The notes beneath the pieces were generated by a model, which searched no databases, was not told the origin of the DNA, and worked only from the letters and a program-made list of their open reading frames with translations. DNA of 64,000 nt from Candidatus Nomurabacteria bacterium RIFCSPLOWO2_01_FULL_39_18. Its GTDB lineage: Bacteria > Patescibacteriota > Minisyncoccia > Phycocordibacterales > UBA9973. The number at the start of each line of letters is the position of its first letter. The stretch's first letter is position 1. Shown one piece after another: positions 3,216 to 60,317 of the stretch. A program made the position numbers and the translations under genes. The stretch lies in assembly GCA_001787005.1 (NCBI GenBank), contig MFUV01000004.1, positions 911 through 64,910 of the forward strand, in the 5' to 3' direction.

Positions 3216-3251
3216 CAAAAAAATTAGCTTTTAAGCACATTTTTTGGTAGC

Positions 3252-3989
3252 ATGAACATTTTTGAAAAATTTACCAATAGAAAATCCAAAACAGTAGAAC
3301 AGGATCAAAAAATATTACCATCTGATATAAGATACGCTCTACAATACAAAAAGAGTCTACTAAACAGGATAGATATAGAAACTTTGGTCAGAAATAATTT
3401 CGAAAATGAGGCACTTTATCTGACATTTAAAAGTTTAACAGAAAATCCGGAACAACACAGAACTTTGCTTGAAAAATGTATTTCTTGTGTTTTAGAAAGT
3501 GGTAATGACACAAAAACTCAAAAAAACACTTTGCAAAAACTTATACTTGAAGCATTGGGAAATAGAAATGACATCCAAGTAAAGGGGGGTAAGTTGGCCC
3601 AACTATCTCGTCAGGGATTTGATCTTTGGCAAGATAAATTCAAACTCGTGGCTTCCCAATTAAGCGATGATGACAGAAATGTATTTTTGGTAACTAATCC
3701 CATGCTTATTGGTTTAAGTTCTTTTGTGCAGGCTTTTTCTGAAAAAAATAAAACATTAAATATAGTAGTGCCCGCATGGCTAGAAAAAGAAAATATGGGA
3801 TATGTTGTTACTTTTGCTGGTGGAAAAATGAATGTGGAATGGTTACGGAAACCTTTTGATAAAAGAGATTTGGTTATAATTGATGATACTAGAAACACAG
3901 GGGACACCCTAGAAAGAATACGGGATTATTTCGTGAAAAATGGTTCTCAAGAGCCAGAGATGTTGGACATGGACAAGATGATAACTTAA
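3252..3989 (+). CDS. Hypothetical protein with a C-terminal phosphoribosyltransferase-like motif
   Basis: 245 aa. The C-terminal segment VIIDDTRNTGDTLERI resembles the PRTase PRPP-binding loop. The N-terminal part was not recognised. Confidence 0.4.
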   Translation: MNIFEKFTNRKSKTVEQDQKILPSDIRYALQYKKSLLNRIDIETLVRNNFENEALYLTFKSLTENPEQHRTLLEKCISCVLESGNDTKTQKNTLQKLILEALGNRNDIQVKGGKLAQLSRQGFDLWQDKFKLVASQLSDDDRNVFLVTNPMLIGLSSFVQAFSEKNKTLNIVVPAWLEKENMGYVVTFAGGKMNVEWLRKPFDKRDLVIIDDTRNTGDTLERIRDYFVKNGSQEPEMLDMDKMIT

Positions 3990-4009
3990 AAAATTTACCA
4001 AATTAACTC

Positions 4010-4741
4010 ATGCCCCAAGAATTTAGATTCTCGAAAAATGTTACCACTCTAATCAACATCCCCCTGGGCGGGCTTTTTGCAATGATTCAGGCTTTGTTTT
4101 TTATAAACGGATTGCTGTGGCTAGCAGGCATAATTTTTGCCACAGATATTAATATAATATTCTGGCTGATTTGTTTTGTTGGTATATTCATCTGCGCTTT
4201 CTTTACATCGCTTTGCGGTCTCTTGGAGTTGAAATGGAGCGCCGTCATCATGGGCACGATAGCAGGGTTAGTGTTCGTCAAAGCAACTGGAGAATTCACG
4301 CAGTTTCAGTTATTTTTCTCTTTATTCACCACGACACTGGCAACATATATTTTTTCAATGTTCCCGGAGATAAAATTAAAAAAGCCTGATTTTATAAATA
4401 ATTTAAATATAATAATCGCAGGACACGTCTTCTGCGACATTATTGTCATGATTAGTTTATTCGCCTCAATCTGGGTGGGGTGGATAAGGCCTTTTGTTTT
4501 GATTGAGATTCTAATTATCATCCTTGCTTGGTATATATTAGGCGGATGCCCTTTCACGGTCGTGGAAGTAAAATTAAATGATAGTAGCGCAAAAAAGATC
4601 ATCCAACATGGATTCCTAGTTTATTACGGAAGATCATATTTGGGACTGAAGATAGATGAGCTCAAATTTGAAACAATGCTAGACCACGTTTTCTATGTTG
4701 GCACAGCTATAATTTTCCTCCTGTGGTTTGTCCTACCGTAA
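4010..4741 (+). CDS. Hypothetical integral membrane protein
   Basis: 243 aa with multiple hydrophobic helices and no recognised motif. Confidence 0.4.
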   Translation: MPQEFRFSKNVTTLINIPLGGLFAMIQALFFINGLLWLAGIIFATDINIIFWLICFVGIFICAFFTSLCGLLELKWSAVIMGTIAGLVFVKATGEFTQFQLFFSLFTTTLATYIFSMFPEIKLKKPDFINNLNIIIAGHVFCDIIVMISLFASIWVGWIRPFVLIEILIIILAWYILGGCPFTVVEVKLNDSSAKKIIQHGFLVYYGRSYLGLKIDELKFETMLDHVFYVGTAIIFLLWFVLP

Positions 4742-4756
4742 AAATTCAAAGAATTC

Positions 4757-6196
4757 CTAGAATTTATTCCAGAGCACCTGATTGGTTACCTCGTGGTGAT
4801 AGACAATCTCGGAGGATTTGATGAGCGCCCCGAGAGCCTTGGGGCTGCGGTCAGCCGCCATCTGTTTAAATTCTGTAAATTTTTCTTGGTTAGTCCGGTT
4901 TAGAATTTTACCGACGAAATCGCTGGCCTTGAAGAGTTTGATCGCGTCATTGATGTTGTCTGGCAAGACCCGCACCCTGTCCCGCTTTTCTTTATCTTTA
5001 ACGAGAAGCTGGCCCTCCAGCCCAGTTTTTAAGATTGTAAAAAGCGCCATGTAAGGATTCGCATCCGGAGCAACAGAGCGGACTTCGATGCGGGTGGAGC
5101 GTTCATTGCCCACAGGAATACGTATCATCGAACCGCGGTCAATTGGAGAGACTTTGATCTGGTTGGGCGCTTCGAAGTGCGGGTCGAGCCGGCGATAAGC
5201 GTTCACGCTCGAATTCAAAACCAAGCAGATTTCCGAGGCATGATTTAAAATTCTCGAAATAAAATCCCAAGCAATCTCTGACAAGCCTTCCTTGCCCTTT
5301 GTATTATAAAATATATTTTTCCCGCCTTTAGAGAGTGAAATGTTCGTATGCATGCCAGAACCGTTGATGCCGATGAAGGGCTTCGGCAAGAAAGTCGCCG
5401 TAATGCCCAGATTGTTGGCGACTTGACGGCAGACCAGTTTGTAGAGCTGGATATTATCCGCGGCCCGTAGAATGTCTGTATAAGAAAAGTTCATTTCAAA
5501 CTGCGAAGGCGCCACTTCCGGATGGTCCTTTTCATTCTTGAAACCCATCGCCCTTTGCGCTTCGGCGGCGCGATCGATAAATTGGCGGAGTCGATCAAGC
5601 GGCAATGAATGATAGTACCCGCCAGTTGAAATAAATTGAAAGGAGCCTGTTTCTTCATACCTCTGTTCAGCGTTAATTCCATCAACCAGAAACCCCTCCA
5701 CTTCTGCCGAGACATATGCCGTTATTCCGCTTTTCTTCTTGAGCGCTTCTCCATAGAGCTTGAGCTGACTGCGAAAATCAGAAACGTACGGGGTGTGGTC
5801 TCTATTTAAGACATCCACAAACATAATAACTTTGCCAGGACCAAAAACATCCGACGGGAGATACCTGATGCTCCCCCAATTAATAGCGAGGCGGAGGTCA
5901 GACTCATGTTGCTGGCTAAAACCACGAATAGATGAGCCGTCAAAGGTCAGGTTATTGGCCGAATCTAGGAGAAACTTTTTATCATAATCAAGCATATGGA
6001 ATCTGCCCTCTAAATCCGTAAAACAGAGCGTCACTGCTTTAATCCTTTTTTCTTTTTGCAAATATGCGCGATATTCCCTCTCGAGCAAAGCTTCACTCAC
6101 CTTCTCTCTCCGGTCTTTAGCTCGGAGATTCATCGCCTCAAGGTCATCGTAGGAGATCTCTAAAAAATTCTTCAATTCTTTCTTTATTCCATTCAT
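4757..6196 (-). CDS. glnA: Glutamine synthetase
   Basis: 479 aa carrying the glutamine-synthetase ATP-binding signature KPFIGINGSGMHTNISL. Confidence 0.9.
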   Translation of the reverse strand: MNGIKKELKNFLEISYDDLEAMNLRAKDRREKVSEALLEREYRAYLQKEKRIKAVTLCFTDLEGRFHMLDYDKKFLLDSANNLTFDGSSIRGFSQQHESDLRLAINWGSIRYLPSDVFGPGKVIMFVDVLNRDHTPYVSDFRSQLKLYGEALKKKSGITAYVSAEVEGFLVDGINAEQRYEETGSFQFISTGGYYHSLPLDRLRQFIDRAAEAQRAMGFKNEKDHPEVAPSQFEMNFSYTDILRAADNIQLYKLVCRQVANNLGITATFLPKPFIGINGSGMHTNISLSKGGKNIFYNTKGKEGLSEIAWDFISRILNHASEICLVLNSSVNAYRRLDPHFEAPNQIKVSPIDRGSMIRIPVGNERSTRIEVRSVAPDANPYMALFTILKTGLEGQLLVKDKEKRDRVRVLPDNINDAIKLFKASDFVGKILNRTNQEKFTEFKQMAADRSPKALGALIKSSEIVYHHEVTNQVLWNKF

Positions 6197-39504: not shown

Positions 39505-40161
39505 TCATCCCCCCTTCTTCCACTCATCTATCTTTTTATGATTTCCAGAAAGCAAAACTTTCGGTACTTTGTAATTTTTACCTTTGTATTTGAGAACTTC
39601 TGGGCGAGTGTAGACTTCGCTCGTAGAAACTCTTTCTTCTTCTAGTGATTCGTATTTTCCTAAAACTCCGGGAATCTGGCGAGAAATTGAATCAATCAAA
39701 ACCATCGCTGGAAGCTCTCCGCCGGTCAGCACATAGTCTCCTATCGAGACCTCCTCAGCACGTAGTATTTTTTGCACTCTCGCATCAATACCTTCATATC
39801 TTCCAGATATTAAAATTATATCTGTGAATTTTTTTGCCGCCCCTTTGGCATATCCTGTGGTGAATTTTTTCCCAGAAGTAGAAAATAAAATAATCTTTGC
39901 CTTTTTACCAAGGGGAACCCTTGGTATTTTACTTGGTATTTTAATCTTTGAGAAAGCTTTTAAAAATAATTCAGGCCGGAGCACCATTCCAGGCCCACCG
40001 CCATACGGCCGCGCATCTACTCGCTTCTTCGGCTCGCAGAAATCCATTGGGTTGTAAAACTTGATAGAAATCTTTTTATCCTTTATCGCCCGCCCAATAA
40101 TAGACCCCTTCAAATAAGAGTCAAACATTTCTGGAAAAATTGTAATTATATGGAATTGCAT
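39505..40161 (-). CDS. trmD: tRNA (guanine37-N1)-methyltransferase
   Basis: Segments MQFHIITIFPEMF...RPYGGGPGMVL. The start is taken at the internal M of the longer ORF. Confidence 0.9.
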   Translation of the reverse strand: MQFHIITIFPEMFDSYLKGSIIGRAIKDKKISIKFYNPMDFCEPKKRVDARPYGGGPGMVLRPELFLKAFSKIKIPSKIPRVPLGKKAKIILFSTSGKKFTTGYAKGAAKKFTDIILISGRYEGIDARVQKILRAEEVSIGDYVLTGGELPAMVLIDSISRQIPGVLGKYESLEEERVSTSEVYTRPEVLKYKGKNYKVPKVLLSGNHKKIDEWKKGG

Positions 40162-40284
40162 AAATAATTCAAAAAGCAAAATATAATTTTTGAAGGGGTT
40201 TGGCAAGCGACGGCGAGCCAACTTCAGGATTTTTTAAGCTTCAAAAAATCCGTACCGAAAAAAATTGATATTTTGCTTTTTGAA

Positions 40285-41713: not shown

Positions 41714-43723
41714 GTGCAAATGAAAAAACCATCAAACAAATTACAGGGTATTATATCTATTTCCTCTAAGGGCACGGGGTATGTGGCTATCGGAGAAGAG
41801 AAGAATAAAGGGCAGGATCCAGAAATAGACTTCAAGCACCTGAACACTGCCCTCCATGGCGACATGGTGGAGATAATTCTTCATCCGAAGGGCAGAGAGC
41901 GGCAGACTGCTGAAGTTTCAAAAATAATTTCTAGAGCCAAGATGAGCTTCACTGGAGTTTTGGAGCAAGAGCATAAAATGTTTTTTCTGAAACCGGACGA
42001 TACGAAAATGTACACCGACATTTTAATTCCAGAAAAAATGCTCCATGGAGCAAAAGCTGGTCAGAAAGTTTTCGTCGAAATAATTTCTTGGCAAGACCCC
42101 CGCAAAGCACCGGAGGGCAAGGTGGTAAAAGTTTTGGGCCGCCCTGGAGACAACAACGTAGAAATGCACGCCATAGCGATAGAGAAAGGTTTCGACGCAG
42201 AACTTCCGGATAAAGTAGAACTGGAGGCGAAGAAAATAAAACAGAGTGGCATTGGAGAAAAAGATTATGTAGGGCGCCGCGACTTCAGAGGAGTCCTTAC
42301 CTTCACCATTGACCCCTCTGATGCAAAAGATTTCGACGATGCAATATCATTCCGAGTCCTCTCCTCCTTAAATAAGGAGGGGGTTGGGGGTGGTAATGCA
42401 AAGAATCACCACCCCGCCTATGGCACCCCTCCTCAAAAAGGGGGTGAGGTCTACGAGATAGGCATCCATATCGCCGACGTGTCGCACTATGTGAAGGTAG
42501 GAAGCGAGCTCGACCAAGAGGCGCGGGAGCGCGGAACATCAGTCTACCTAGTGGACAGGACGATACCCATGTTACCGGAAATACTTTCAAATGATCTGTG
42601 CTCTCTGGTCCCCCACAAAGACAGGCTCACCATGAGCGCAGTTTTTGTTATAGATAAAAATGCTAGAGTCGTGAATGAATGGTACGGTCGCACGGTTATA
42701 CATTCTAAAAAAAGATTCACTTACGAAGAAGCAGGAGAATCAATTAAAAAACCGAGTGCGCTATTCCATAAAGAATTATCTATTCTAAATAATCTAGCAA
42801 AGAAATTAACCAAGGAGAGGTTTAGGGAGGGCGCCATATCGCTCGACCAGGAGGAAGTCAAATTCGTACTGAATAAAAACGGCACGCCGCTCAAAGTAAT
42901 CAAAAAGGAGCGAGGCGATTCAAACAGACTGATTGAAGAGTTTATGCTTTTAGCGAATAAAAAAGTGGCTAGGGTCCTCTCGCCAAAAGACAAAAGTAAT
43001 AAAGAGGGGGTATCTATCTATCGCGTGCATGATCTGCCCAGCAAGGAAAAGATGATTGACTTGGCGTTTTTCTTGCGAAGTTTGGGGCATAAGGTGTCTC
43101 TGCGAGAAGGTATAATTCCTACGTATGAAATAAATAAATTATTGGAGAGTTTGGCTGGGAAGAATGAAGCCGATACAGTGCATCGAGCCGTAATCAGGTC
43201 TATGGCAAAGGCAATTTATTCTACGAAAAATATCGGGCACTATGGGCTCGCCTTTGCGTACTACACCCATTTCACTTCTCCGATCAGGCGCTATCCAGAC
43301 ATCATGGTGCATAGATTGCTTGCAAACTTTTTAGCTGGCAAAAAGATAGGTAGGGAAAAATTGCACGAGTATGAAAAAATAGCTAGGATTTCTTCTGAAC
43401 AAGAGAAGCGCGCGACAGACGCGGAAAGAGCTTCGATAAAATATAAACAAGTAGAATACATGTCTCTCCGGAAGGGAGAAAAATTCGAAGGAATCATCAG
43501 TGGGATAACCGAGTGGGGCTTGTATGTGGAAGAAATTGAGACAAAATGCGAGGGGATGGTGCGGGTAAAAGATATGACCGATGACTTTTATGTATTTAAT
43601 GAAAAGAAGCTGGAAATGGTCGGACAAAAAAAGAAAAAGAAGTATCGATTCGGCGATCGAGTTCTAATAAAAGTCAAAGGGGTTGATTTAGAACGAAAAA
43701 CAATAGATTATATTTTAATATAA
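41714..43723 (+). CDS. rnr: Ribonuclease R (RNB family) with an in-frame GC-rich insertion
   Basis: RNB motif RRDFRGVLTFTIDPSDAKDFDDA, a cold-shock domain and a C-terminal S1 domain. The extra peptide SSLNKEGVGGGNAKNHHPAYGTPPQKGG is encoded by 42357-42449. Confidence 0.9.
   Translation: MQMKKPSNKLQGIISISSKGTGYVAIGEEKNKGQDPEIDFKHLNTALHGDMVEIILHPKGRERQTAEVSKIISRAKMSFTGVLEQEHKMFFLKPDDTKMYTDILIPEKMLHGAKAGQKVFVEIISWQDPRKAPEGKVVKVLGRPGDNNVEMHAIAIEKGFDAELPDKVELEAKKIKQSGIGEKDYVGRRDFRGVLTFTIDPSDAKDFDDAISFRVLSSLNKEGVGGGNAKNHHPAYGTPPQKGGEVYEIGIHIADVSHYVKVGSELDQEARERGTSVYLVDRTIPMLPEILSNDLCSLVPHKDRLTMSAVFVIDKNARVVNEWYGRTVIHSKKRFTYEEAGESIKKPSALFHKELSILNNLAKKLTKERFREGAISLDQEEVKFVLNKNGTPLKVIKKERGDSNRLIEEFMLLANKKVARVLSPKDKSNKEGVSIYRVHDLPSKEKMIDLAFFLRSLGHKVSLREGIIPTYEINKLLESLAGKNEADTVHRAVIRSMAKAIYSTKNIGHYGLAFAYYTHFTSPIRRYPDIMVHRLLANFLAGKKIGREKLHEYEKIARISSEQEKRATDAERASIKYKQVEYMSLRKGEKFEGIISGITEWGLYVEEIETKCEGMVRVKDMTDDFYVFNEKKLEMVGQKKKKKYRFGDRVLIKVKGVDLERKTIDYILI
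42357..42449. repeat. GC-rich palindromic element (RPE-like), copy B, in-frame in rnr
   Basis: Hairpins ctcctcc-ttaaataa-ggagggg and caccccTcctcaaaaaGggggtg. Confidence 0.5.
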
Positions 43724-45702
43724 TGGAGGATTTAAAAGGAAAAAACTTTTCAAAAATAAAAGCATTCGGCTGGACGATTGTCTCTGTAACTTTGGGTATA
43801 TCGCTCGCGTCTATTGCTTTGTCATTTTTTGAGAATAATATAGATAAAATTTCAAACGAAGGAGGCAGGGCCTTGGCTGTGGAATCTATAATAAAGAATG
43901 AAAAACCTAAATATTTTTATATTAACCAAAATTCCTACGTAGAACCCAAGGTCTCGGCAAAAGCTTACTTGGTTGGCGATTTAAATACCGGTGAAGTAAT
44001 CTTGGCAAAGAATCAAGACCAGAAACTGCCAATCGCTTCAGTATCGAAGCTAATGACCGCGTATGTGGCAAAAGAAATAGTAAAAGGAGACGAAGAAGCC
44101 AAAGCCAGCCAGAGAGCGCTCTTGACCTATGGGGGTAATGGAGGGTTCCGCGTTGGAGAAAAAATAAAAATATCTGATCTTCTCTATCCCCTGCTTTTGG
44201 AGTCTAGCAATGACGCGGCAGAGATAATCGCGGAATATTTCGAACGGGACAGTTTCATCAGAAAGATGAACCAGGAAGCGGAAAATTTGAATATGTCTTC
44301 GACTTTTTTCGAAGACCCAAGTGGGCTCTCCGAAAACAATCAATCCACCCCGGCAGACTTATTTAAATTCACCGGATTTATAAAACAAGCAACGCCAGAA
44401 CTGCTCCAAATCACCACCAAAAGAAATTATTCCACCAAGAAACACAGCTGGCCAAGCACCAACCAATTTTTGCATGATTCCGGATATATGGGCGGTAAAA
44501 GCGGCTACACCGACCCTGCCCTGCAAACTGTCGTTTCTCTTTTCTCCTTGCCCCTTTCAGAATCAAGCACCAGACCTATCGGGATAGTGCTCCTTCGTAG
44601 TTTGGACCGGCGCAAGGATGTGGAAACTATTCTGAAATATTTGAAAAAAAATGTGTATTACGGAGGAGAGGCGGACGCGAGCACCGACTGGGTGAGAGAG
44701 AAGGTCGGGGCGCCCGACATTCGAGAGCCAGATTATGTGACGATGACTTTCGGGGGTGATATAATGCTCGACCGCGGAGTGAAAAATTCAGTGATAAAAA
44801 ATTTCAACAATGACTACTCTGCGCTCTTTGGCGAGCTAGAGATGCTGAAAGATTCAGACATCGTTTTTGCAAACCTAGAGGGCACAGCATCGGACGTGGG
44901 TACTGACATGCACAATTTATATTCTTTCCATATGGACCCGGCTGTCATCCCCGCTCTTTCTGGCGCGGGAATAAATATCTTATCGGTTGCCAACAATCAT
45001 ATGGGGGACTGGGGACGCGCTTCATATGAAGATACTCTCTCTCGTTTACGGGAAAATGAAATATTCTATACAGGAGGAGGAATAAATAGAGAAGAAGCCG
45101 AACGGCCGACCATTATTGAAAAATACGGAATGAAAATAGGATTCTTGGGGTTCTCGGACGTAGGTCCGAACTTCATGAAAGCGGGTGAAGACCAGGCAGG
45201 ATTACTCCTCGCCAGCAATCCACGCTTCGAAGAAATAATAAAAAATGCTTCTTCAAAGGTGGACTATTTAGTGATTTCATTCCATTTCGGTGAAGAGTAT
45301 CAGGCAAAGCATAATACGCGACAGGAAGAATTAGCGCACAAAGCTGTGGACAACGGAGCGAAACTCATCATCGGAAGTCATCCCCATGTAGTGGAAGACA
45401 CTGAAGTTTATATCCCAAAAGATTGCACTCAAAGTTCGTGCGTAGGCTATATCGCCTATTCACTAGGGAACTTTATCTTCGACCAAACATTTAGATCTGA
45501 CACCATGCAAGGCATGCTCCTCAATGTCAGGCTCAGCAATAATGGACAAATGACGGTGAGAAAAGATACGGTAAAATTAAATTCCGCTTTCCAGCCGAAT
45601 CAGATAATCAAAGGCAAAGAGGAGAAAATAAATTTTCAGGAGCATACGGAGGCGAGCATACGGAGGCGTTGCCTCCGTAGTTTCGTAGTTTGCAAGCCTT
45701 AA
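43723..45702 (+). CDS. Fusion of a D-Ala-D-Ala carboxypeptidase (peptidase S11) and a CapA/PGA_cap metallophosphatase
   Basis: N-terminal TM helix. SxxK active site ASVSKLMT in the N-terminal half. Motifs DYVTMTFGGDIMLDRGV and VFANLEG in the C-terminal half. The last ~19 residues are encoded by a REP-like hairpin. Confidence 0.65.
   Translation: MEDLKGKNFSKIKAFGWTIVSVTLGISLASIALSFFENNIDKISNEGGRALAVESIIKNEKPKYFYINQNSYVEPKVSAKAYLVGDLNTGEVILAKNQDQKLPIASVSKLMTAYVAKEIVKGDEEAKASQRALLTYGGNGGFRVGEKIKISDLLYPLLLESSNDAAEIIAEYFERDSFIRKMNQEAENLNMSSTFFEDPSGLSENNQSTPADLFKFTGFIKQATPELLQITTKRNYSTKKHSWPSTNQFLHDSGYMGGKSGYTDPALQTVVSLFSLPLSESSTRPIGIVLLRSLDRRKDVETILKYLKKNVYYGGEADASTDWVREKVGAPDIREPDYVTMTFGGDIMLDRGVKNSVIKNFNNDYSALFGELEMLKDSDIVFANLEGTASDVGTDMHNLYSFHMDPAVIPALSGAGINILSVANNHMGDWGRASYEDTLSRLRENEIFYTGGGINREEAERPTIIEKYGMKIGFLGFSDVGPNFMKAGEDQAGLLLASNPRFEEIIKNASSKVDYLVISFHFGEEYQAKHNTRQEELAHKAVDNGAKLIIGSHPHVVEDTEVYIPKDCTQSSCVGYIAYSLGNFIFDQTFRSDTMQGMLLNVRLSNNGQMTVRKDTVKLNSAFQPNQIIKGKEEKINFQEHTEASIRRRCLRSFVVCKP
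45642..45690. repeat. REP-like hairpin R1
   Basis: Sequence gcatacggaggcgagcatacggaggcgttgcctccgtag. The core palindrome is ACGGAGGCGTTGCCTCCGT, with a tandem half-duplication. Confidence 0.55.
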
Positions 45703-46061
45703 GCGTTTACAGGCAAAGCTACCTCTTCTATATAACTTTCGCAAATTGGAGTAATATGTTCAGAGATCATTGTTGCCCATTCTTCGCTAGAGTATTTTGA
45801 TTGGATCATTTTGAAAAGATCATCAATTTTTTTATCTTCCATCATCTTTGAAGCTTGCTCAGTCTCAGTTGTATTTAATTTTTCCTTTGAAACACCAATG
45901 AGTGTAAGGATAACCACCGCTGAAAAATCCAGATACATTTGATTTATCCCATCTTCGCTCAATCCTCGTTTTTCAAATATTTTTTTAAAAAAATCTTTCA
46001 TAATATTTTTAATATTCAGTCTTTTGATGTAAAATGTTCGACCCTCTCGCGCATTAACCAA
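45699..46061 (-). CDS. Hypothetical protein, possible cargo of the REP-bounded region
   Basis: 120-aa ORF. An alternative start lies at MKDFFKK. Confidence 0.3.
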   Translation of the reverse strand: MVNAREGRTFYIKRLNIKNIMKDFFKKIFEKRGLSEDGINQMYLDFSAVVILTLIGVSKEKLNTTETEQASKMMEDKKIDDLFKMIQSKYSSEEWATMISEHITPICESYIEEVALPVNA

Positions 46062-46743
46062 CTTTTTCTAATTTTTCTTCTCGTTCAAATTTTTCTCTAT
46101 ATGATATCTTTAGTGAAACTAAACGAAGGAACTCTCTTGCTGCTTCCGGATCTTCGTCAAACCTTTCCATCACAGCACTCACGGATCGATCAACAACCGA
46201 TTCATCAAAATTTTCTAACTGGTCCGGTCTGGTCCGGCTAACTTCCTTTCTGGCATCTTTAGTTTCATAATCAGTTCCTTCCTTCTTTACAATCTCCCAT
46301 CTAACACTATTTACAATACCTTTTACTCTTTTCGGTTCTTTCTCGTATCTGTTATTCATTTTTTGAGCCTCTCTACGGTCTTCTTCTTCCCTAATTTCTT
46401 CTTTTTTTTCTGGAGAAACCCCCTTCTTTATGCCAAAACGCATCGCATAATTTGTGCCAACCACAAGAGCCCCTGCTCCAACATAAGCCAGAGATTGTTC
46501 GAAATTTCCTTTTACTGCACTTTCGGCAGACTTTAACAATAAAAGAAAATTTGCCCAGCCGCTAGCTTTCATAATTGCTGTTCCGCCGTACATAAGAGCT
46601 TTGTCCTTAACTCCTTTAAGCCACTTTATATGTCTAGATCTTATCTGCTCGGCAGTTTCAACACTCGCTGTTTGTTCTTTTTTGATTATCGGTTGTGGAG
46701 ACCATTTTTCCATACAGCTTATAATACCCCCCCCCACAACCAT
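46054..46743 (-). CDS. Hypothetical charged protein, possible cargo
   Basis: 229-aa ORF with a Glu/Lys/Arg-rich C-terminal half. Confidence 0.3.
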   Translation of the reverse strand: MVVGGGIISCMEKWSPQPIIKKEQTASVETAEQIRSRHIKWLKGVKDKALMYGGTAIMKASGWANFLLLLKSAESAVKGNFEQSLAYVGAGALVVGTNYAMRFGIKKGVSPEKKEEIREEEDRREAQKMNNRYEKEPKRVKGIVNSVRWEIVKKEGTDYETKDARKEVSRTRPDQLENFDESVVDRSVSAVMERFDEDPEAAREFLRLVSLKISYREKFEREEKLEKVG

Positions 46744-46785
46744 GTCAATCCAAATGTGGATAACTCAACACCCCTCTGTTGTTTT

Positions 46786-46836
46786 TGCCTCTGTGCGACT
46801 ACGGAGGCGCGACTACGGAGGCGTTGCCTCTGTTTA
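46786..46836. repeat. REP-like hairpin R2, upstream of the RAYT gene
   Basis: Sequence ttgcctctgtgcgactacggaggcgcgactacggaggcgttgcctctgt. Confidence 0.55.
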
Positions 46837-46852
46837 TGGTTCGTGCTATATT

Positions 46853-47491
46853 ATGGACATGGCTTTAAGAAAACAATCTTTCGCTGTGGATGAATATTAT
46901 CATTTATATAATCGTGGTACTGAAAAAAGGAAAATTTTTTTAGAAAAAAGAGATTATGAACATTTTTTGTTTTTAATGTATGTCTGTAATACTACAAAAA
47001 GTATCGAATTGAGAAATATTGGCAAAACTTTTGATCGCGAAGAAACTATAATTGATATTGGTGCATATTGTTTAATGCCTAATCATTTTCATGTCCTTGT
47101 TCGTGAAAAAGTAAAAAATGGAATTTCTAAATATATGCTTAAACTAATGACTGGATATTCGATGTATTTTAATAAAAAATACAAACGAACTGGGAAATTA
47201 TATGAGGGTGTATTTAAATCAATCCATGCGAATAAGGACACATATCTAAAATATCTTTATTCGTATATTCATCTGAATCCAGCAAAATTGATAGATAAAA
47301 ATTGGAAGGAAAATAAACACAGAAACATCAAAAATTTACTAAAATATGTTTTTTCTTATAAATACTCAAGTCTAAAAGAATATATAAGCTTAAAATTTAA
47401 AATCGTAAATCCAATACCATTTCCAACTTATTTCAAAAGACCAAATGGTCATAAAGAAGAACTTTTTGAGTGGCTTAGTTTAGGTGAGTGA
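46853..47491 (+). CDS. IS200-like Y1 (HUH) transposase, REP-associated tyrosine transposase type
   Basis: Motif YHLYNRGTEKRKIF, the HUH motif NHFHVLV and a C-terminal YSYIHLNP. Flanked on both sides by REP-like hairpins. Confidence 0.75.
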   Translation: MDMALRKQSFAVDEYYHLYNRGTEKRKIFLEKRDYEHFLFLMYVCNTTKSIELRNIGKTFDREETIIDIGAYCLMPNHFHVLVREKVKNGISKYMLKLMTGYSMYFNKKYKRTGKLYEGVFKSIHANKDTYLKYLYSYIHLNPAKLIDKNWKENKHRNIKNLLKYVFSYKYSSLKEYISLKFKIVNPIPFPTYFKRPNGHKEELFEWLSLGE

Positions 47492-47497
47492 GTTAAT

Positions 47498-47540
47498 ACG
47501 GAAAATTACGGAGGCATTGCCTCTGTATATGCCTCTGTAT
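47498..47540. repeat. REP-like hairpin R3, downstream of the RAYT gene
   Basis: Sequence acggaaaattacggaggcattgcctctgtatatgcctctgtatat. It encodes the C-terminal YTEAYTEAMPP tail of Maf on the opposite strand. Confidence 0.55.
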
Positions 47541-48108
47541 ATTTATACCCTGCTTTTTTAAGTAAACTTTCTAGCAACTGAATTGGCAGACCGATGATGC
47601 CATTGTGATTTCCTTCAATTCTTTCCACATATTGTTTCATGAGTTGAATACTAAACCCTCCTGCTCGAGAGAGCATATCACCTTCTCTAATAAGAAATTC
47701 TATAAAATCATCGGAAAATGGTTTAAAGAAAACTTTAGATTTATCAACACCATCATGCCTCTCCCCCGTTTGGGTGTTCACCACCACGACAGCGCATACT
47801 GCCTCTGGAACCAGCCCTCCACTGTATCTTTTCAGAAGTTGTCTGGCTCCCTCCTCTGATTCTGGTTTTTCATAAAGTTTCCCTTCGCACACAACAATAA
47901 CATCAGAAGTAATTATTATCGATGCTTCTTCAACTTTTCCGATGAGAGCATCGGCTTTTCTGTGGGCGAGAACAAGCGGTCTTTCATATAGATCATCTGT
48001 CTTAATATTTTTCTCATCAACATTCGGACTCATAACGTCAAAAACATATCCTGCTTTTTCGAGAAGTTCTTTTCTGTATTTAGAAGATGAACCTAGAATT
48101 AATTTCAT
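47506..48108 (-). CDS. maf: Maf-family nucleotide pyrophosphatase
   Basis: N-terminus MKLILGSSSKYRKELLEKAG. Confidence 0.8.
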   Translation of the reverse strand: MKLILGSSSKYRKELLEKAGYVFDVMSPNVDEKNIKTDDLYERPLVLAHRKADALIGKVEEASIIITSDVIVVCEGKLYEKPESEEGARQLLKRYSGGLVPEAVCAVVVVNTQTGERHDGVDKSKVFFKPFSDDFIEFLIREGDMLSRAGGFSIQLMKQYVERIEGNHNGIIGLPIQLLESLLKKAGYKYTEAYTEAMPP

Positions 48109-48124
48109 GGAGAATAATTATGGA

Positions 48125-48658
48125 CTAAAAATGTTCAGGATTTTCTAGGTGCATGAGTGCCATCATAATAGCTGCCTTGTTGTATTCAGTTCTGTTCATG
48201 CGACCTTTGGTGAAAACACCTACAAAGCCCTCGTGTTCTCCTATTTTTTCATGATGAGTAAGTCCAGCTACTCGCATTGCTTGACTACCATCCATCCCTC
48301 TCTCGAGAATTTCTTTAAGAACTTTTTTGGGCCACTCAAATGCTGAAGTGGTACCCATATGAATTTGACTGCCATCAAAAATGGCACAAACACCAATTTC
48401 CATATAGCCTGATTTTGTTTGAGGGACTTTCATTAATCCACTTTCAATGCCAAAACCATAATCATGGCCGATATATGCTTGTTTAGCACGATTAACTGCT
48501 CCAGAAACAATTTCTTCGAGATTTTTTGGGTGGCCAAATTCTTCCTTCTTTACATCCACGCCAAGAACTTCTGTATTATCAAACATCGGATAGTCTTTGA
48601 GCAAATCTCTGACTGCGTCAACTTTTGTTTTATTTTTTGAACCTACTCCAACTTTCAT
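48125..48658 (-). CDS. Non-canonical purine NTP pyrophosphatase (YjjX/ITPase-like)
   Basis: N-terminus MKVGVGSKNKTKVDAV at the internal M of the longer ORF. Lies between Maf and a NUDIX gene. Confidence 0.5.
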   Translation of the reverse strand: MKVGVGSKNKTKVDAVRDLLKDYPMFDNTEVLGVDVKKEEFGHPKNLEEIVSGAVNRAKQAYIGHDYGFGIESGLMKVPQTKSGYMEIGVCAIFDGSQIHMGTTSAFEWPKKVLKEILERGMDGSQAMRVAGLTHHEKIGEHEGFVGVFTKGRMNRTEYNKAAIMMALMHLENPEHF

Positions 48659-58430: not shown

Positions 58431-60317
58431 TTACCTCACTTGCCAAGCTTCATTTCCCTTAATTTTATTAGATATTTTGGCCATAATTTCGTTTATTTCT
58501 GTGTCTGTTAGAGTGCGATTATAAGACTGAAAAACCAGACGAAAGGCGTAAGAAATTTGACTGTCTTTTTTGAACTCGTCGAATAAATCAGGGCCCTTAA
58601 TTAGGAGTTCTCCCGCGTTTTCTTTTATAATTTTTTGAACTTTTGAACTTTCAACTGAAGCGGGCACCCATACAGCAATGTCTCGCGCGATGAATGGGTA
58701 CAATGACCACATTTGAAATTTTTCTGAATAAGAATTTTCTTTAGAAGAGACTTGGGAGCGCGTCGGCGCGAGCACGAGGAATTTTTCAGCAGAAAAATAT
58801 CCGTGCTCTTCTGAAGAAGAATTCTTAGAAAGAAAATCATCTAAACTTGTTTCTATTATTTTTTCTTTTTCATTGTACACAACATGCATTTCTTCTCCAT
58901 TTTTTTTAAACACAGTTCCTATTTCGAAAATTTTAATTTCATTGAAGTCAAGCAATAAAGCATTCAGTTTATTTAATTTTAAACTTTCCTTAAGTCCATC
59001 AGTCAAATTCGTCCTTAAAAATTTCTTGTCTGAAGCACTTTGCATCACCTCCACTTCCCCCTTGTCTTGGAAGACGTATGTCATCACTTCAGAGTAACCC
59101 TCATCTAATAATTTATTTCTGGCGAAAGCTATTTTGGCGTAAGTTTCGTTAACTTTCGGCTTAAAATCTATCTTGGGCATTATCGGCTTTACTCTGTCAT
59201 ACCCTAAAATTCTACCTATCTCTTCCGCCATATCCTCTTCCATAACTAGATCAAGCCGCATCGCTGGCACAGTAATTGTGAACTTGGAGGTCTTGCCTCC
59301 AAGTGGAGGCAAGACCTCCAAGTTGTACTCAATATTGTATCTCTTAAAAATATCTTCTATCTCTTTTGCGGAAACGACTAAGCCTAAAATTTTAGAAATT
59401 TTCTCCGTTGAAAAAGAAAGTTCTCTCTCTTCTTGTTTTTTTGGATAAATATCCACAACATCCTCAAAAATAGCTTCGGGGCACATTTCCGCGATTAGCG
59501 CAGAAAGTTCGCGCATACCGTATTCTGCCATTGTCGGTGACAAATCGTTCTCAAATCTCTTGCGCGCGTCAGTAAAAATGTTTAGGGCTTGGGCGGTTTT
59601 GCGCACGCTAGTCGGATCGAAATTAGCACATTCTAGAATTATATCCGTTGTATCTTTATTCAATTCCGCATATTGCCCCCCTTTTATCCCCGCAATATCC
59701 AGAGAATTTCCAAAATCGTCAGCAATTACCATCATGGTTTCATTCATTATTTTTTCCCCTCCGCCAAGCAGAGTTATCTTTTCCCCTGCTTTAGCATTTC
59801 GTACTTTTAGTTTTAAATCTTTAACTTTTTTCAAATCAAAAACATGCGCTGGTTGGCCGCAATTAAACATTGTGAGGTTTGTGGCATCCACGATATTGTT
59901 TATGCTTCTCTGCCCGATTGATTCTAAATGCTTCACTACCCATTCTGGCGATGGGCCAATTTTAATATTCCTGACGACTCTGCCCATGTATCGGCGGCAG
60001 TTTGGACTTTCAATTGTTTTTACTAACTTCGTCGGCTTGGATTCTGGAATTTTGTATTTAGGCGTTGGGTCAATATATGAAATATTTAAAAGTGAGGCAA
60101 GCTCGCGGGCTATACCTTGATGGGAAAGCAGGTCATGCGCGCGGTTTGGTAAAATTTTTATATCAAAAATAAAATCACCACCCCCAGCCCCCTCCTCCAC
60201 AAGGAGGGGAGTTACACTTTCTACCTCCGCAACATGGTAAGTTATAATATCCGCCAGTTTTTCTGCAGAAGGAACATCGGGTATATACCATTTAAGCCAA
60301 TTGTAGGAAATTAGCAT
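58431..60317 (-). CDS. pheT: Phenylalanyl-tRNA synthetase beta subunit, compact, with two in-frame repeat insertions
   Basis: B3/4 domain, B5 domain and a C-terminal FDX-ACB-like domain. 628 aa. The N-terminal insertion VTPLLVEEGAGGGDF comes from GC-rich element D. The insertion EEHGYFSAEKFLVLA comes from the AT-type hairpin at 58770-58808. Confidence 0.85.
   Translation of the reverse strand: MLISYNWLKWYIPDVPSAEKLADIITYHVAEVESVTPLLVEEGAGGGDFIFDIKILPNRAHDLLSHQGIARELASLLNISYIDPTPKYKIPESKPTKLVKTIESPNCRRYMGRVVRNIKIGPSPEWVVKHLESIGQRSINNIVDATNLTMFNCGQPAHVFDLKKVKDLKLKVRNAKAGEKITLLGGGEKIMNETMMVIADDFGNSLDIAGIKGGQYAELNKDTTDIILECANFDPTSVRKTAQALNIFTDARKRFENDLSPTMAEYGMRELSALIAEMCPEAIFEDVVDIYPKKQEERELSFSTEKISKILGLVVSAKEIEDIFKRYNIEYNLEVLPPLGGKTSKFTITVPAMRLDLVMEEDMAEEIGRILGYDRVKPIMPKIDFKPKVNETYAKIAFARNKLLDEGYSEVMTYVFQDKGEVEVMQSASDKKFLRTNLTDGLKESLKLNKLNALLLDFNEIKIFEIGTVFKKNGEEMHVVYNEKEKIIETSLDDFLSKNSSSEEHGYFSAEKFLVLAPTRSQVSSKENSYSEKFQMWSLYPFIARDIAVWVPASVESSKVQKIIKENAGELLIKGPDLFDEFKKDSQISYAFRLVFQSYNRTLTDTEINEIMAKISNKIKGNEAWQVR
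58770..58808. repeat. AT-type hairpin element, copy 2, in-frame in pheT
   Basis: The sequence gagcacgaggaatttttcagcagaaaaatatccgtgctc closely matches 16007-16045. Confidence 0.5.
60176..60212. repeat. GC-rich palindromic element, copy D, in-frame near the pheT N-terminus
   Basis: Hairpin cccctcctcc-acaa-ggaggggag. Confidence 0.45.

Follow-up and report, generated by a model that had tools for sequence, protein, structure and literature searches.

A probable REPtron in Candidatus Nomurabacteria (Patescibacteria), with hairpin-encoded tails on two neighbouring proteins

Does a single-copy HUH nuclease gene that lies between copies of one short hairpin belong to a mobile insertion sequence, or is it a resident of the chromosome that acts on hairpins of its own? 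This question is raised by a locus in a 64 kb stretch of a Candidatus Nomurabacteria genome (hereafter the window). We consider it likely that the locus is a REPtron, that is, a resident RAYT/TnpA(REP)-like ssDNA nuclease gene with a cognate hairpin on each side, and that the gene has probably been domesticated. REPtrons are a known kind of system, not previously described in Patescibacteria in the searchable literature. The locus would be a variant from a phylum new for such systems, in an ultra-small genome.

Three hairpins around a RAYT-like gene

The pattern TACGGAGGC-RTT-GCCTCYGTA occurs three times in the 64 kb searched (45659-79, 46814-33 and 47507-27; 0.01 expected). A search of the window with the core ACGGAGGCGTTGCCTCCGT, allowing up to 3 mismatches, returned 45660-78 (0 mismatches), 46815-33 (1) and 47508-26 (2) and no further match; shuffled sequences contained a mean of 0.01 core matches, and 0 of 100 shuffles equalled the observed count. 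All three copies were read on the + strand. R1 (45642-45690) consists of a left arm TACGGAGGC (45645-53), gagca, a perfect hairpin TACGGAGGC-GTT-GCCTCCGTA (45659-79), a G and tttcGTAG, and contains GTAG twice (45677-80 and 45685-88). R2 (46787-46833), which flanks the nuclease gene upstream, begins with GCCTCTGT (46787-94), gcgact, ACGGAGGC (46801-08) and gcgact, followed by the hairpin ACGGAGGC-GTT-GCCTCTGT (46815-33). In R3 (47497-47539), the downstream flank, a degenerate arm TACGGAAAAT (47497-506) precedes the hairpin TACGGAGGC-ATT-GCCTCTGTA (47507-27), tat and an extra right arm GCCTCTGTA (47531-39). An extra tandem arm is present in 3/3 copies, on the left side in R1 and R2 and on the right side in R3. 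Both the third copy upstream and the tandem duplication in each copy, as reported by the first-pass annotation, can thus be read in the sequence itself.

Folded as + strand ssDNA, R1, R2 and R3 reached -13.7, -12.8 and -9.2 kcal/mol (z = -3.1, -3.6 and -3.8). R2 and R3 folded more weakly as the - strand, because C>T changes yield G.T pairs on the + strand only. The three copies recur with identical sequence and spacing in three independent assemblies (L001-L003), one of them from another sample, and are therefore no assembly artefact. Within ~74 kb of this genome (the window and a further 9.7 kb) no copy turned up away from the locus, so repetition is shown in relatives only.

The gene between R2 and R3 (46859-47491, + strand, 210 aa) matches Pfam Y1_Tnp (E 3.4e-7; 30.9 bits, cut-off 23). 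Its true start, going by homologues and promoter geometry, is 46859 (MALRKQ...) and not 46853. Its sole NCBIfam match was REP_Tyr_transpos, and it scored 32.7 bits against the NCBI RayT equivalog, below the cut-off of 80. HFH and YIHLNPAK are invariant, with H76/H78 and Y136-x3-N140-P141 fixed in 28 homologues. BLASTP aligned PNHFHVLV with PEHMHCI and YSYIHLNPAK with VDYIYINPVK of E. coli RayT, so that the motifs of the two proteins are colinear; hhalign against E. coli RayT alone gave a weak match, and W94 and Q95, with which the E. coli protein reads GTAG, have no conserved counterpart. A sequence search for solved structures found none, and the AlphaFold model (pLDDT 53) was too poor for use. 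More than 7,800 homologues were found, the best 120 of which are 74-87% identical and come from Patescibacteria wherever the source names the host. The motifs, with their HUH and Y-x3-NP catalytic signature, mark the gene as one for a RAYT-like Y1 HUH nuclease; nuclease activity is predicted by analogy.

The upstream hairpin also appears to take part in the expression of this gene. In the predicted promoter (46824-46852, + strand) the -35 box TTGCCT is formed by the loop and right arm of R2, and is followed by 17 nt, an extended -10 (TGcTATATT), 6 nt and the ATG, which implies a leaderless mRNA. The same geometry was found at 45/100 homologous loci versus 11% of shuffles, consistent with a leaderless RAYT promoter whose -35 box is supplied by the hairpin.

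Hairpins that follow the gene lineage and disperse in relatives

At dozens of homologous loci the gene is bracketed within ~10-50 nt by a single hairpin with a 9-bp stem and a 3-nt loop. A flanking hairpin of the same type was present at 74 loci, on both sides in 51, and at 48 of these 51 the two arms agreed within 1 mismatch, compared with 10% for arms from different loci. The distal stem varies among lineages via compensatory changes (52 distinct arm types), and the AGG beside the loop is invariant (125/125). An 87%-identical paralogue (P0002), for example, carries TACACAGGC-GTT-GCCTGTGTA on each side. As the hairpin type is specific to a locus yet shared by both flanks, gene and hairpin co-vary as they do in REPtrons. 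The first-pass annotation had an IS200-like HUH gene flanked by its own hairpins, and this holds up well, with pairing that is conserved and co-varies across ~75 homologous loci. Relative to each other, the two flanking hairpins may point either way (24 direct, 17 inverted).

Patescibacteria loci contained the exact 19-mer at 95 sites, of which 71 are separated from the nearest RAYT gene by over 200 nt, and several relatives' genomes hold 3-5 separate exact sites each. That the hairpin is a repeat, as the earlier name REP implies, is thus borne out by hairpins dispersed on their own in related Patescibacteria, but not by the ~74 kb of the present genome. GTAG stands at the 3' foot of 24/95 copies. 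Extra tandem arms are likewise found in 24/95, versus 4.4% of control windows, and are a trait of the family. About a third of the copies lie in frame within housekeeping genes (33/95 in ORFs 150 aa or longer), with a biased choice of frame (GGxAS 18, TEAxPP 14, RRxxLR 1); for RNase R, TopA and TatD, orthologues exist that do not have the insert.

By analogy with the biochemistry of E. coli TnpA(REP) (PMC6006769, PMC8266576), the RAYT protein would bind single-stranded DNA at the folded hairpin, and would cut and rejoin it at the hairpin's foot. Such an activity could copy hairpins into new sites and could also produce the tandem extra arms. It might furthermore turn hairpins into hot spots of local rearrangement, one of which may have set a two-ORF segment between R1 and R2.

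Hairpin-encoded tails of Dac-CapA and Maf

R1 and R3 each reach into a neighbouring gene. The Dac-CapA fusion gene (43723-45702, + strand; Peptidase_S11 and PGA_cap) takes its final 19 codons (45643-45699) from R1, and its translated C-terminus reads ...INFQE|HTEASIRRRCLRSFVVCKP*, the second part stemming from the hairpin. Its Pfam domains finish at residue 588 of 659, and six orthologues stop 0-8 residues past ...GKEEKINFQE. The Maf gene (47506-48108, - strand; Pfam Maf) has its final 12 codons (K YTEAYTEAMPP, 47509-47544) and its stop (47506-08) in R3, with the TAA at the foot of the hairpin; the protein ends ...KAGYK|YTEAYTEAMPP*, and the Maf domain is already complete at residue 185 of 200. 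Among 19 Maf orthologues, 16 finish no more than 4 residues from ...(A/V/S)G(Y/F/R), two have a different end, and the remaining one (P0156) ends NDYGDYGGNASV, which is the hairpin in another reading frame. As orthologues stop before the tails, the 19- and 12-residue tails are hairpin-derived and not conserved. The first-pass annotation, which had suggested this comparison with orthologues, was therefore right about their origin.

In relatives the hairpin lies directly past the Dac-CapA stop codon (L024, L103, L065 and L112) or past the Maf stop (L046). All six frames of the hairpin TACGGAGGCGTTGCCTCCGTA are free of stop codons, so translation runs on into any copy that adjoins or takes the place of a gene's stop. 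The 'C-terminal remodelling' put forward earlier is correct in that the tails come from hairpins, but it is no new principle: REPs overlapping gene ends and intragenic REPs have been described in other phyla (PMC3733652), which makes it a known side-effect. The tails of Dac-CapA (+19 residues) and Maf (+12) are tolerated C-terminal by-products and not evidence of adaptive function.

Alternative readings and known systems

An autonomous IS200/IS605-type insertion sequence, in which R2 and R3 are the ends of an element that moves as a whole, would explain the Y1_Tnp domain, the low GC of the gene (24-32% versus 40-47% in its neighbours) and the presence of both hairpins on the + strand, like IS200 ends. 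In addition, in a sister MAG the P0002 paralogue is found in other surroundings, and contigs of several MAGs end within the gene, so that there may be some mobility or multiple copies. Nevertheless, we regard this reading as unlikely. The gene holds one chromosomal position in at least six genomes, after RNase R/Dac-CapA and facing Maf, although the neighbouring genes are merely 57-76% identical. The order Dac-CapA/hairpin/RAYT is kept in L112, L103 and L065, L206 keeps RNase R/hairpin/RAYT/hairpin/Maf, and in L011 the gene follows Dac-CapA at a larger distance. At conserved loci RAYT is 75-84% identical versus 60-73% for Dac-CapA and 57% for Maf, and by this measure it is at least as well conserved as its housekeeping neighbours. 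Its homologues diverge gradually in small clusters (74-87%) instead of forming identical copies. IS200/IS605 elements (IS200, IS608, ISDra2) share the Y1 HUH transposase fold family and subterminal hairpins recognised as single-stranded DNA, but they are multi-copy and decaying, with distinct left and right ends and often tnpB. None of this was seen here: the gene is single-copy in the window, both ends are one palindrome of varying orientation, tnpB is absent, the Y-x3-NP RAYT motif is present, IS200 NCBIfam models gave no match to the protein, and most hairpins lie away from RAYT genes.

The first-pass annotation had further suggested that two ORFs between R1 and R2 are cargo, which would make R1 to R3 (45642-47540) a single composite mobile unit. 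ORF B (45699-46001, - strand, 100 aa, function unknown), whose stop codon overlaps that of Dac-CapA, belongs to a small family whose 74 representatives, each ~95-105 aa long, align over their full length; ORF B itself had no match in Pfam, NCBIfam, PHROG or PADLOC. ORF A (46054-46743, - strand; likely real start 46713, 219 aa, as called by NCBI) is an orphan with only two matches among 5.8 billion proteins. The direct copies R1 and R2 on either side (88% alike over 34 nt, which speaks against the unit), a strong promoter-like site of the ORFs' own (46721-46748, - strand; TTGACA-16-TATTAT, 11/12 matches) and a GC below that of the flanks would fit such a unit. We consider it very unlikely all the same, as the segment is missing from every other RAYT locus examined (~100), Dac-CapA, hairpin and RAYT are immediate neighbours in relatives, and R1 is the counterpart of the ancestral hairpin between Dac-CapA and RAYT in L112, L103, L065 and L024, including its 'cat' spacer and extra arm. 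The cargo proposal is thus not upheld, and from these comparisons the two ORFs are best read as a lineage-specific insertion at the hairpin. That the hairpins are ordinary, nuclease-independent terminators or mRNA-stabilising stem-loops seems highly improbable. The genes around R1 and around R3 do converge, G.T pairs favour one strand, a terminator scan listed R2 and R3, and outside Patescibacteria the identical 19-mer is a terminator stem between A and T runs; in Patescibacteria, however, no T-run follows the stem, 33 copies lie within coding regions, R2 stands 5' of the RAYT start and forms its -35 box, and hairpin sequence was found to correlate with RAYT lineage. Short-read assemblies are prone to errors at palindromes with tandem arms, yet we see next to no chance that the tails result from assembly or frameshift errors or miscalled stops, given that three assemblies, drawn from at least two samples, agree in sequence and spacing, that an identical tailed Maf protein is recorded on 18 contigs, and that no in-frame stop precedes the tails.

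The preferred reading, a REPtron, agrees with the systems of E. coli (rayT/yafM), Pseudomonas and Stenotrophomonas (PMC3733652, PMC6006769, PMC5581495) in having one Y1 HUH nuclease gene, marked by HUH and Y-x3-N-P motifs, between copies of a short GC-rich hairpin specific to the gene lineage, and in a kept chromosomal place with conservation like that of housekeeping genes. Also shared, across the family, are copies of the hairpin at other places in the genome, the possibility of two or more RAYT genes in one genome, each with a hairpin type of its own, and REPs that overlap gene ends, provide stop codons and are occasionally intragenic. The locus differs in its host, published surveys having detected REPs in Proteobacteria, Cyanobacteria, Chloroflexi and PVC and reported tnpA(REP) genomes to be larger than average. 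It differs also in its stem, which is near-perfect, 9 bp long and capped by a 3-nt loop next to an invariant AGG/CCT; in singlets, often with one extra tandem arm, instead of REPIN doublets; in an apparently low copy number (relatives have 3-5 or more exact copies each); and in the share of intragenic copies in relatives, about one third. The hairpin is no canonical REP, as it lacks an unpaired 5' GTAG (GT[AG]G) guide, and at 210 aa the protein exceeds E. coli RayT (165 aa) by ~45 residues. The REP identity proposed at first stands for the REPtron arrangement, but not for the guide or the NCBI RayT cut-off. By description, TnpA(Y1) subclass 2.6 of Bacteroidetes, a different phylum, is alike in that atypical non-GTAG secondary structures flank RAYT-like genes and also have copies elsewhere in the genome (Quentin et al. 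2018, PMC6006769). The dispersed copies furthermore resemble Rickettsia palindromic elements (RPEs) and intragenic GTAG/CGTC REPs (PMC3733652), which are short palindromic in-frame inserts in housekeeping genes of a reduced genome and add a few residues where loops tolerate them. RPEs carry a CGTC tag and lack a transposase of their own (PMC3733652). In the present locus the unit is ~21 bp and a cognate RAYT gene adjoins it.

RPEs are ~100-150 bp long.

The RAYT gene and its hairpins

Gene order across the locus was RNase R (41714-43723, +), Dac-CapA (43723-45702, +), hairpin R1, two minus-strand ORFs termed ORF B (45699..46001) and ORF A (46054..46743), hairpin R2, the Y1 nuclease gene (46859-47491, +), hairpin R3, and then Maf (47506-48108), NTPase, NUDIX and SMC, all on the minus strand. 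The three hairpins reported in the first-pass annotation held up in a window scan, in which the 19-mer core of the stem-loop was matched at 45660-78, 46815-33 and 47508-26; a fourth match was absent from the 64 kb, and shuffled sequences gave a mean of 0.01. Three assemblies, derived from two or more samples, show the same three copies at the same spacing, and assembly error is therefore excluded. All three sites have a 9-bp stem and a 3-nt loop (TACGGAGGC-RTT-GCCTCYGTA) with at least one extra tandem arm each: in R1 another TACGGAGGC precedes the hairpin by 14 nt and GTAG occurs twice after it, R2 carries an extra left arm preceded by a further arm GCCTCTGT, and R3 combines a degenerate arm on its left with a second GCCTCTGTA on its right. 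Such half-site duplication, also remarked on in the first reading, is a trait of the whole family, with an extra tandem arm in 24 of 95 listed copies versus 4.4% of control windows. When folded as plus-strand ssDNA, R1, R2 and R3 reached -13.7, -12.8 and -9.2 kcal/mol, respectively (z = -3.1 to -3.8), and minus-strand folding was clearly poorer for R2 and R3 because C>T changes leave G.T pairs on the plus strand only. An inversion of R3 relative to R2, considered because its extra arm is on the opposite side, was ruled out, as the RTT loop and the G.T pairing make all three plus-strand hairpins. In the whole window there are nine hairpins of this general shape, three of them at this locus, and Rfam matched nothing in 44500-48500 with E up to 1.

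The protein encoded between R2 and R3 matched Pfam Y1_Tnp above cut-off (30.9 versus 23). Its sole NCBIfam match was the RayT model NF047646 (REP_Tyr_transpos, an equivalog) at 32.7 bits, below the curated cut-off of 80, and none of the NCBIfam IS200 models was matched. More than 7,800 relatives were found, all of ∼210 aa; the best 120 are 74-87% identical, those of them with a named source are Patescibacteria, and one relative bears the JGI name 'REP element-mobilizing transposase RayT'. RAYT, or TnpA(REP), proteins constitute class 2 of the TnpA-Y1 superfamily. Their hallmarks, an HUH motif and a catalytic Tyr in a Y-x3-N-P context, are present here as NHFHVLV and YSYIHLNPAK; in an alignment of 28 homologues HFH and Y-S-Y-I-H-L-N-P were invariant, as were H76, H78, Y136 and N140, with P141 nearly so (≥90%). 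The Asn of Y-x3-N-P (N119) is essential in E. coli RayT (PMC6006769). BLASTP against E. coli RayT (from NC_000913.3) gave a weak match that was colinear across both motifs (PEHMHCI, YIYINPVK in E. coli), while hhalign against that protein alone aligned the HUH segment only. The reference for a RAYT fold is PDB 4ER8; a phmmer and profile search of PDB sequences returned no Y1 transposase, and an AlphaFold2 model built from the 28 close homologues had a pLDDT of 52.7, too low to be of use. By analogy with the E. coli system, we infer nuclease activity, mobilisation and any host benefit for this RAYT.

As homologues begin with MALRKQ, the gene starts at 46859, and the public annotation (P0001, 245 aa), which wrongly reads through R2, is 35 residues too long. 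N-terminal extensions of this kind on RAYT genes in CPR genomes are to be treated as miscalls. Upstream of this start, the loop and right arm of R2 spell TTGCCT, followed 17 nt on by TGcTATATT and after another 6 nt by the ATG. The geometry TTGnnn, 16-18 nt, TAnnnT recurred in 45 of 100 homologous loci versus 11% of shuffles, and most listed loci with a GGAGGC-type hairpin have it; in several of these that were read directly, the -10 box is 6-7 nt from the ATG. A start codon 6 nt past the -10 box implies a leaderless RAYT mRNA, and it is plausible that the protein would autoregulate its gene by binding its own hairpin.

Pairing and spread of gene and hairpin

Each RAYT gene of a REPtron has its own hairpin type (PMC3733652, PMC6006769). 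We surveyed 80 metagenome loci (homologues of 47-81% identity) together with genome loci, and at either end of the gene we took the best hairpin with a 3-nt loop from the adjoining ∼130 nt. A hairpin with GG/CC beside the loop was present in 74 loci and two-sided in 51, and the 9-nt arms of both flanks matched within one mismatch in 48 of these 51, compared with 10% for arms taken from different loci. In spite of 52 distinct arms across loci, A-G-G at stem positions 6-8 was invariant (125/125), whereas the filter had imposed GG only. Because the hairpins came from a hairpin finder, formal counting of pair covariation would be circular, and agreement of flanks within loci was instead compared with that between loci. 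The same pairing is seen in P0002, an 87% identical paralogue in another context (RecR-HIT), which has TACACAGGC-GTT-GCCTGTGTA upstream and the same stem with an AAC loop downstream; compared with the window hairpin, its stem has changed in a compensatory way. Relative orientation of the flanking copies varied (24 direct, 17 inverted, 7 other), and inverted flanking REPs were dropped as a criterion since orientation is not fixed across loci. As judged from these sequences, a gene with cognate, co-varying hairpins is the REPtron arrangement, and the initial identification of a REP/RAYT unit is supported by the Y1_Tnp match, the HUH and Y-x3-N-P motifs, and the conserved, co-varying pairing of gene and hairpin.

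An exact scan for the 19-mer in one genome per species gave at least 118 loci, among them 81 Patescibacteria loci with 95 sites; in the 37 listed loci from other phyla, many matches are ordinary terminator stems between A and T runs, and others are in GC-rich coding DNA. Of the 95 listed Patescibacteria sites, 24 have a RAYT gene no more than 200 nt away and the other 71 do not, and several relatives have 3-5 or more separate exact sites among the matches listed. No copy away from the locus was found in the window plus 9.7 kb beyond it (∼74 kb of the source genome).

The hairpin departs from the canonical REP of the GTAG superfamily by having no unpaired 5' GT[AG]G guide. Its GTA is base-paired and closes the stem at the 3' end. 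A G after it, which makes GTAG, was seen in only 24 of the 95 listed copies, where this GTAG is at the 3' foot and partly base-paired. CTAC precedes the stem in 19 of these 95, and more distant subfamilies are without any GTA. The residues with which E. coli RayT reads the GTAG guide (W94, Q95) are not conserved in the window protein. A REPIN consists of two inverted REPs, with the longer hairpin as the replicating unit, whereas the copies here are singlets, and extra arms are tandem rather than inverted. The locus is a REPtron-like unit with an atypical hairpin, which has no GTAG guide, occurs as singles with tandem arms, appears to be of low copy number and is often intragenic. In the literature searched, no paper linked RAYT, REP or IS200 with Patescibacteria/CPR, and we found no earlier description of a REPtron in this group there.

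Probable residency and rearrangement of the locus

The unit could be read as a conventional mobile element of the IS200/IS605 type, to which the Y1 domain and terminal hairpins would be common. Such elements are multi-copy, have distinct LE and RE hairpins, often carry tnpB and match an IS200 TnpA model. In contrast, tnpB is absent from the window's ORFs, the two ends of the unit are the same palindrome, and synteny of the locus is kept in at least six genomes. The 64 kb hold one copy of the RAYT gene. Dac-CapA orthologues (60-73% identity) are followed by a hairpin and RAYT in L112, L103 and L065, by RAYT farther off in L011 and, in L024, by just a hairpin, and L206 has the order RNase R / hairpin / RAYT / hairpin / Maf. 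At syntenic loci RAYT was 75-84% identical to the window copy, against 70-76% for RNase R, 60-73% for Dac-CapA and 57% for Maf, by which measure it appears to be conserved at least as well as its housekeeping neighbours; RAYTs have been found to behave like housekeeping genes (PMC5581495). Pure stasis is countered by the gene being AT-richer than its flanks, by a second paralogue in a sister MAG and by signs of exchange between copies: a 302-nt tract (47016-47317) is perfectly identical between the window gene and P0002 (at L004), amid DNA of 65-85% identity, which suggests gene conversion between the two paralogues. Two paralogues also occur in MAG RIFCSPLOWO2_01_FULL_39_18, a sister from the same population (identical Maf), namely A3A95_01920 at this locus and A3A95_01140 at RecR-HIT, the second having another hairpin type.

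In several MAGs contigs break inside the RAYT gene (contig ends of L055/L079, L059/L103 and L065), consistent with at least two near-identical RAYT segments per genome confusing the assembler. In the syntenic relative L024 (2170-2260), just 19 codons of Maf are left, immediately next to the hairpin, and neither the NTPase nor the NUDIX gene is present; this junction at the hairpin is a deletion or rearrangement.

A different origin than cargo has to be considered for ORF A and ORF B, which the first-pass annotation had listed as possible passengers. Neither ORF was found in the other RAYT loci examined, nor did either give a significant match in Pfam, NCBIfam, PHROGs or PADLOC; ORF A had two matches in 5.8 billion proteins, and ORF B is one of a small family of proteins ∼100 aa long. 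R1, 'cat' spacer and extra arm included, corresponds to the hairpin intervening between Dac-CapA and RAYT in L112, and the segment from ∼45694 to R2 is therefore an insertion private to this lineage, which separates the ancestral hairpin from the promoter of RAYT. These observations count against cargo, and the segment may instead have arisen by rearrangement at a hairpin hot spot. It is served by a strong, near-consensus promoter of its own (TTGACA-16-TATTAT; 46721-46748, -) overlapping the annotated start of ORF A. Translation of ORF A more probably begins at the ATG at 46713, which would make it leaderless and 219 aa long.

Hairpins within coding sequences

The claim that hairpins had altered the C-termini of both flanking genes was borne out by comparison with orthologues. 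Six Dac-CapA orthologues stop 0-8 residues past ...GKEEK(I/V)(N/K)F(Q/E), with a hairpin 5-45 nt past the stop in four orthologous loci (L024, L103, L065 and L112), whereas the window protein runs on through R1 as HTEASIRRRCLRSFVVCKP. In a set of 19 Maf orthologues of 188-206 aa, the C-terminus of 16 is ...(A/V/S)G(Y/F/R) or no more than 4 residues from it, and two others differ but show no hairpin-like tail; window Maf adds K-YTEAYTEAMPP, and the P0156 Maf, at which the RAYT/Maf junction is also found, adds NDYGDYGGNASV, the same hairpin with an extra arm in another frame. By this comparison the tail peptides (HTEASIRRRCLR in Dac-CapA, YTEAYTEAMPP in Maf) are hairpin-derived and not conserved. 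The 21-mer has no stop in any of six frames (YGGVASV, TEALPP, RRRCLR, YGGNASV, TEATPP, RRQRLR) and is therefore read through to the next chance stop; that of Maf is a TAA made at the hairpin foot. REP termini that provide stops, and REPs inside genes, have been described before from other phyla (PMC3733652). When CPR genomes are annotated, unusual C-terminal tails and short insertions (TEALPPY, YGGVASV, RRRCLR) in housekeeping proteins are best regarded as hairpin read-through.

Inside ORFs of at least 150 aa lie 33 of the 95 listed copies, fewer than for random positions, 73% of which fall in ORFs, yet still a third. Their frames are biased (GGxAS 18, TEAxPP 14, RRxxLR 1), which argues that the inserts are translated and selected. 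Host genes of the intragenic 19-mer include MiaA (10 loci, both loop orientations), PurL, LigA, TopA, RNase R, PrfB, TatD, RsmE, FolD, KsgA, YrdC and RibF. Orthologues without them show that RNase R, TopA and TatD have truly gained ∼8-20 residues by insertion. Window RNase R is without this insert; in L046 the RNase R gene (3242-5266) has two inserts that derive from the hairpin, HGGVASV close to the N-terminus and, farther along, NLEALPPLGGKASKL, both missing from the window protein. In MiaA an insertion was rejected, as the hairpin-encoded TEALPPY stands for SGDALPY of E. coli with length unchanged. In ten species (L025, L062, L081, L017, L041, L048, L066, L071, L098 and L114) MiaA has the exact 19-mer at one shared position, encoding TEALPPY or TEATPPY, and this site may be a conversion target or even the source of the hairpin family.

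RAYT/REP systems, which have been studied almost only in large proteobacterial genomes, are the standard example of bacterial transposase domestication. The question of what they do for the host is touched by a very conserved family with >7,800 relatives in ultra-reduced Patescibacteria, whose hairpin-bracketed members occupy a stable locus; because Patescibacteria genomes hold little spare DNA, neutral persistence is hard to argue. We tentatively put forward, as a reading that is rather unlikely to be right, a long-lived host-integrated system in Paceibacteria/Nomurabacteria, with a nuclease under selection and better conserved than the housekeeping genes beside it, an autoregulatory promoter in its own target hairpin, and short, stop-free hairpins kept at the DNA level even in essential genes (MiaA, PurL, LigA, TopA, RNase R, TrmD) and translated in only two of three frames, so that they would be functional genome landmarks and not selfish debris. 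If so, the landmarks might serve replication- or repair-coupled ssDNA processing or supply variation in protein loops and C-termini, in some of the smallest bacterial genomes. The system is also compact, with a recognition code (invariant AGG, variable distal stem) readable from natural covariation.

Other palindromes were seen in the window. TrmD (39505-40221, -) contains, in frame at 39906-39941, a hairpin of a second type, TACCAAGGG-GAA-CCCTTGGTA, which has part of an extra arm on its right and encodes KIPS|KIPRVPLGK. Metagenome locus L204 has the identical hairpin flanking a RAYT of 52% identity, and the TrmD copy resembles an orphaned REP from another RAYT family that lies within a gene. 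Window RNase R has a GC-rich insert of ∼27 residues (SLNKEGVGGGNAKNHHPAYGTPPQKGG) at 42357-42445 that is missing from the L046 orthologue; its DNA consists of nested palindromes (CCTCCTTA-aa-TAAGGAGG, GGGGTGGTAAT..ATCACCACCCC and AGGAGGGG..CCCCTCCT), and it is another palindromic in-frame insertion. A complex palindrome at 59282-59316, in which ACTTGGAGGTCTTGCCTCCAAGT overlaps GGTCTTGCCTCCAAGTGGAGGCAAGACC, has the GGAGGC/GCCTCC motif of the REP.
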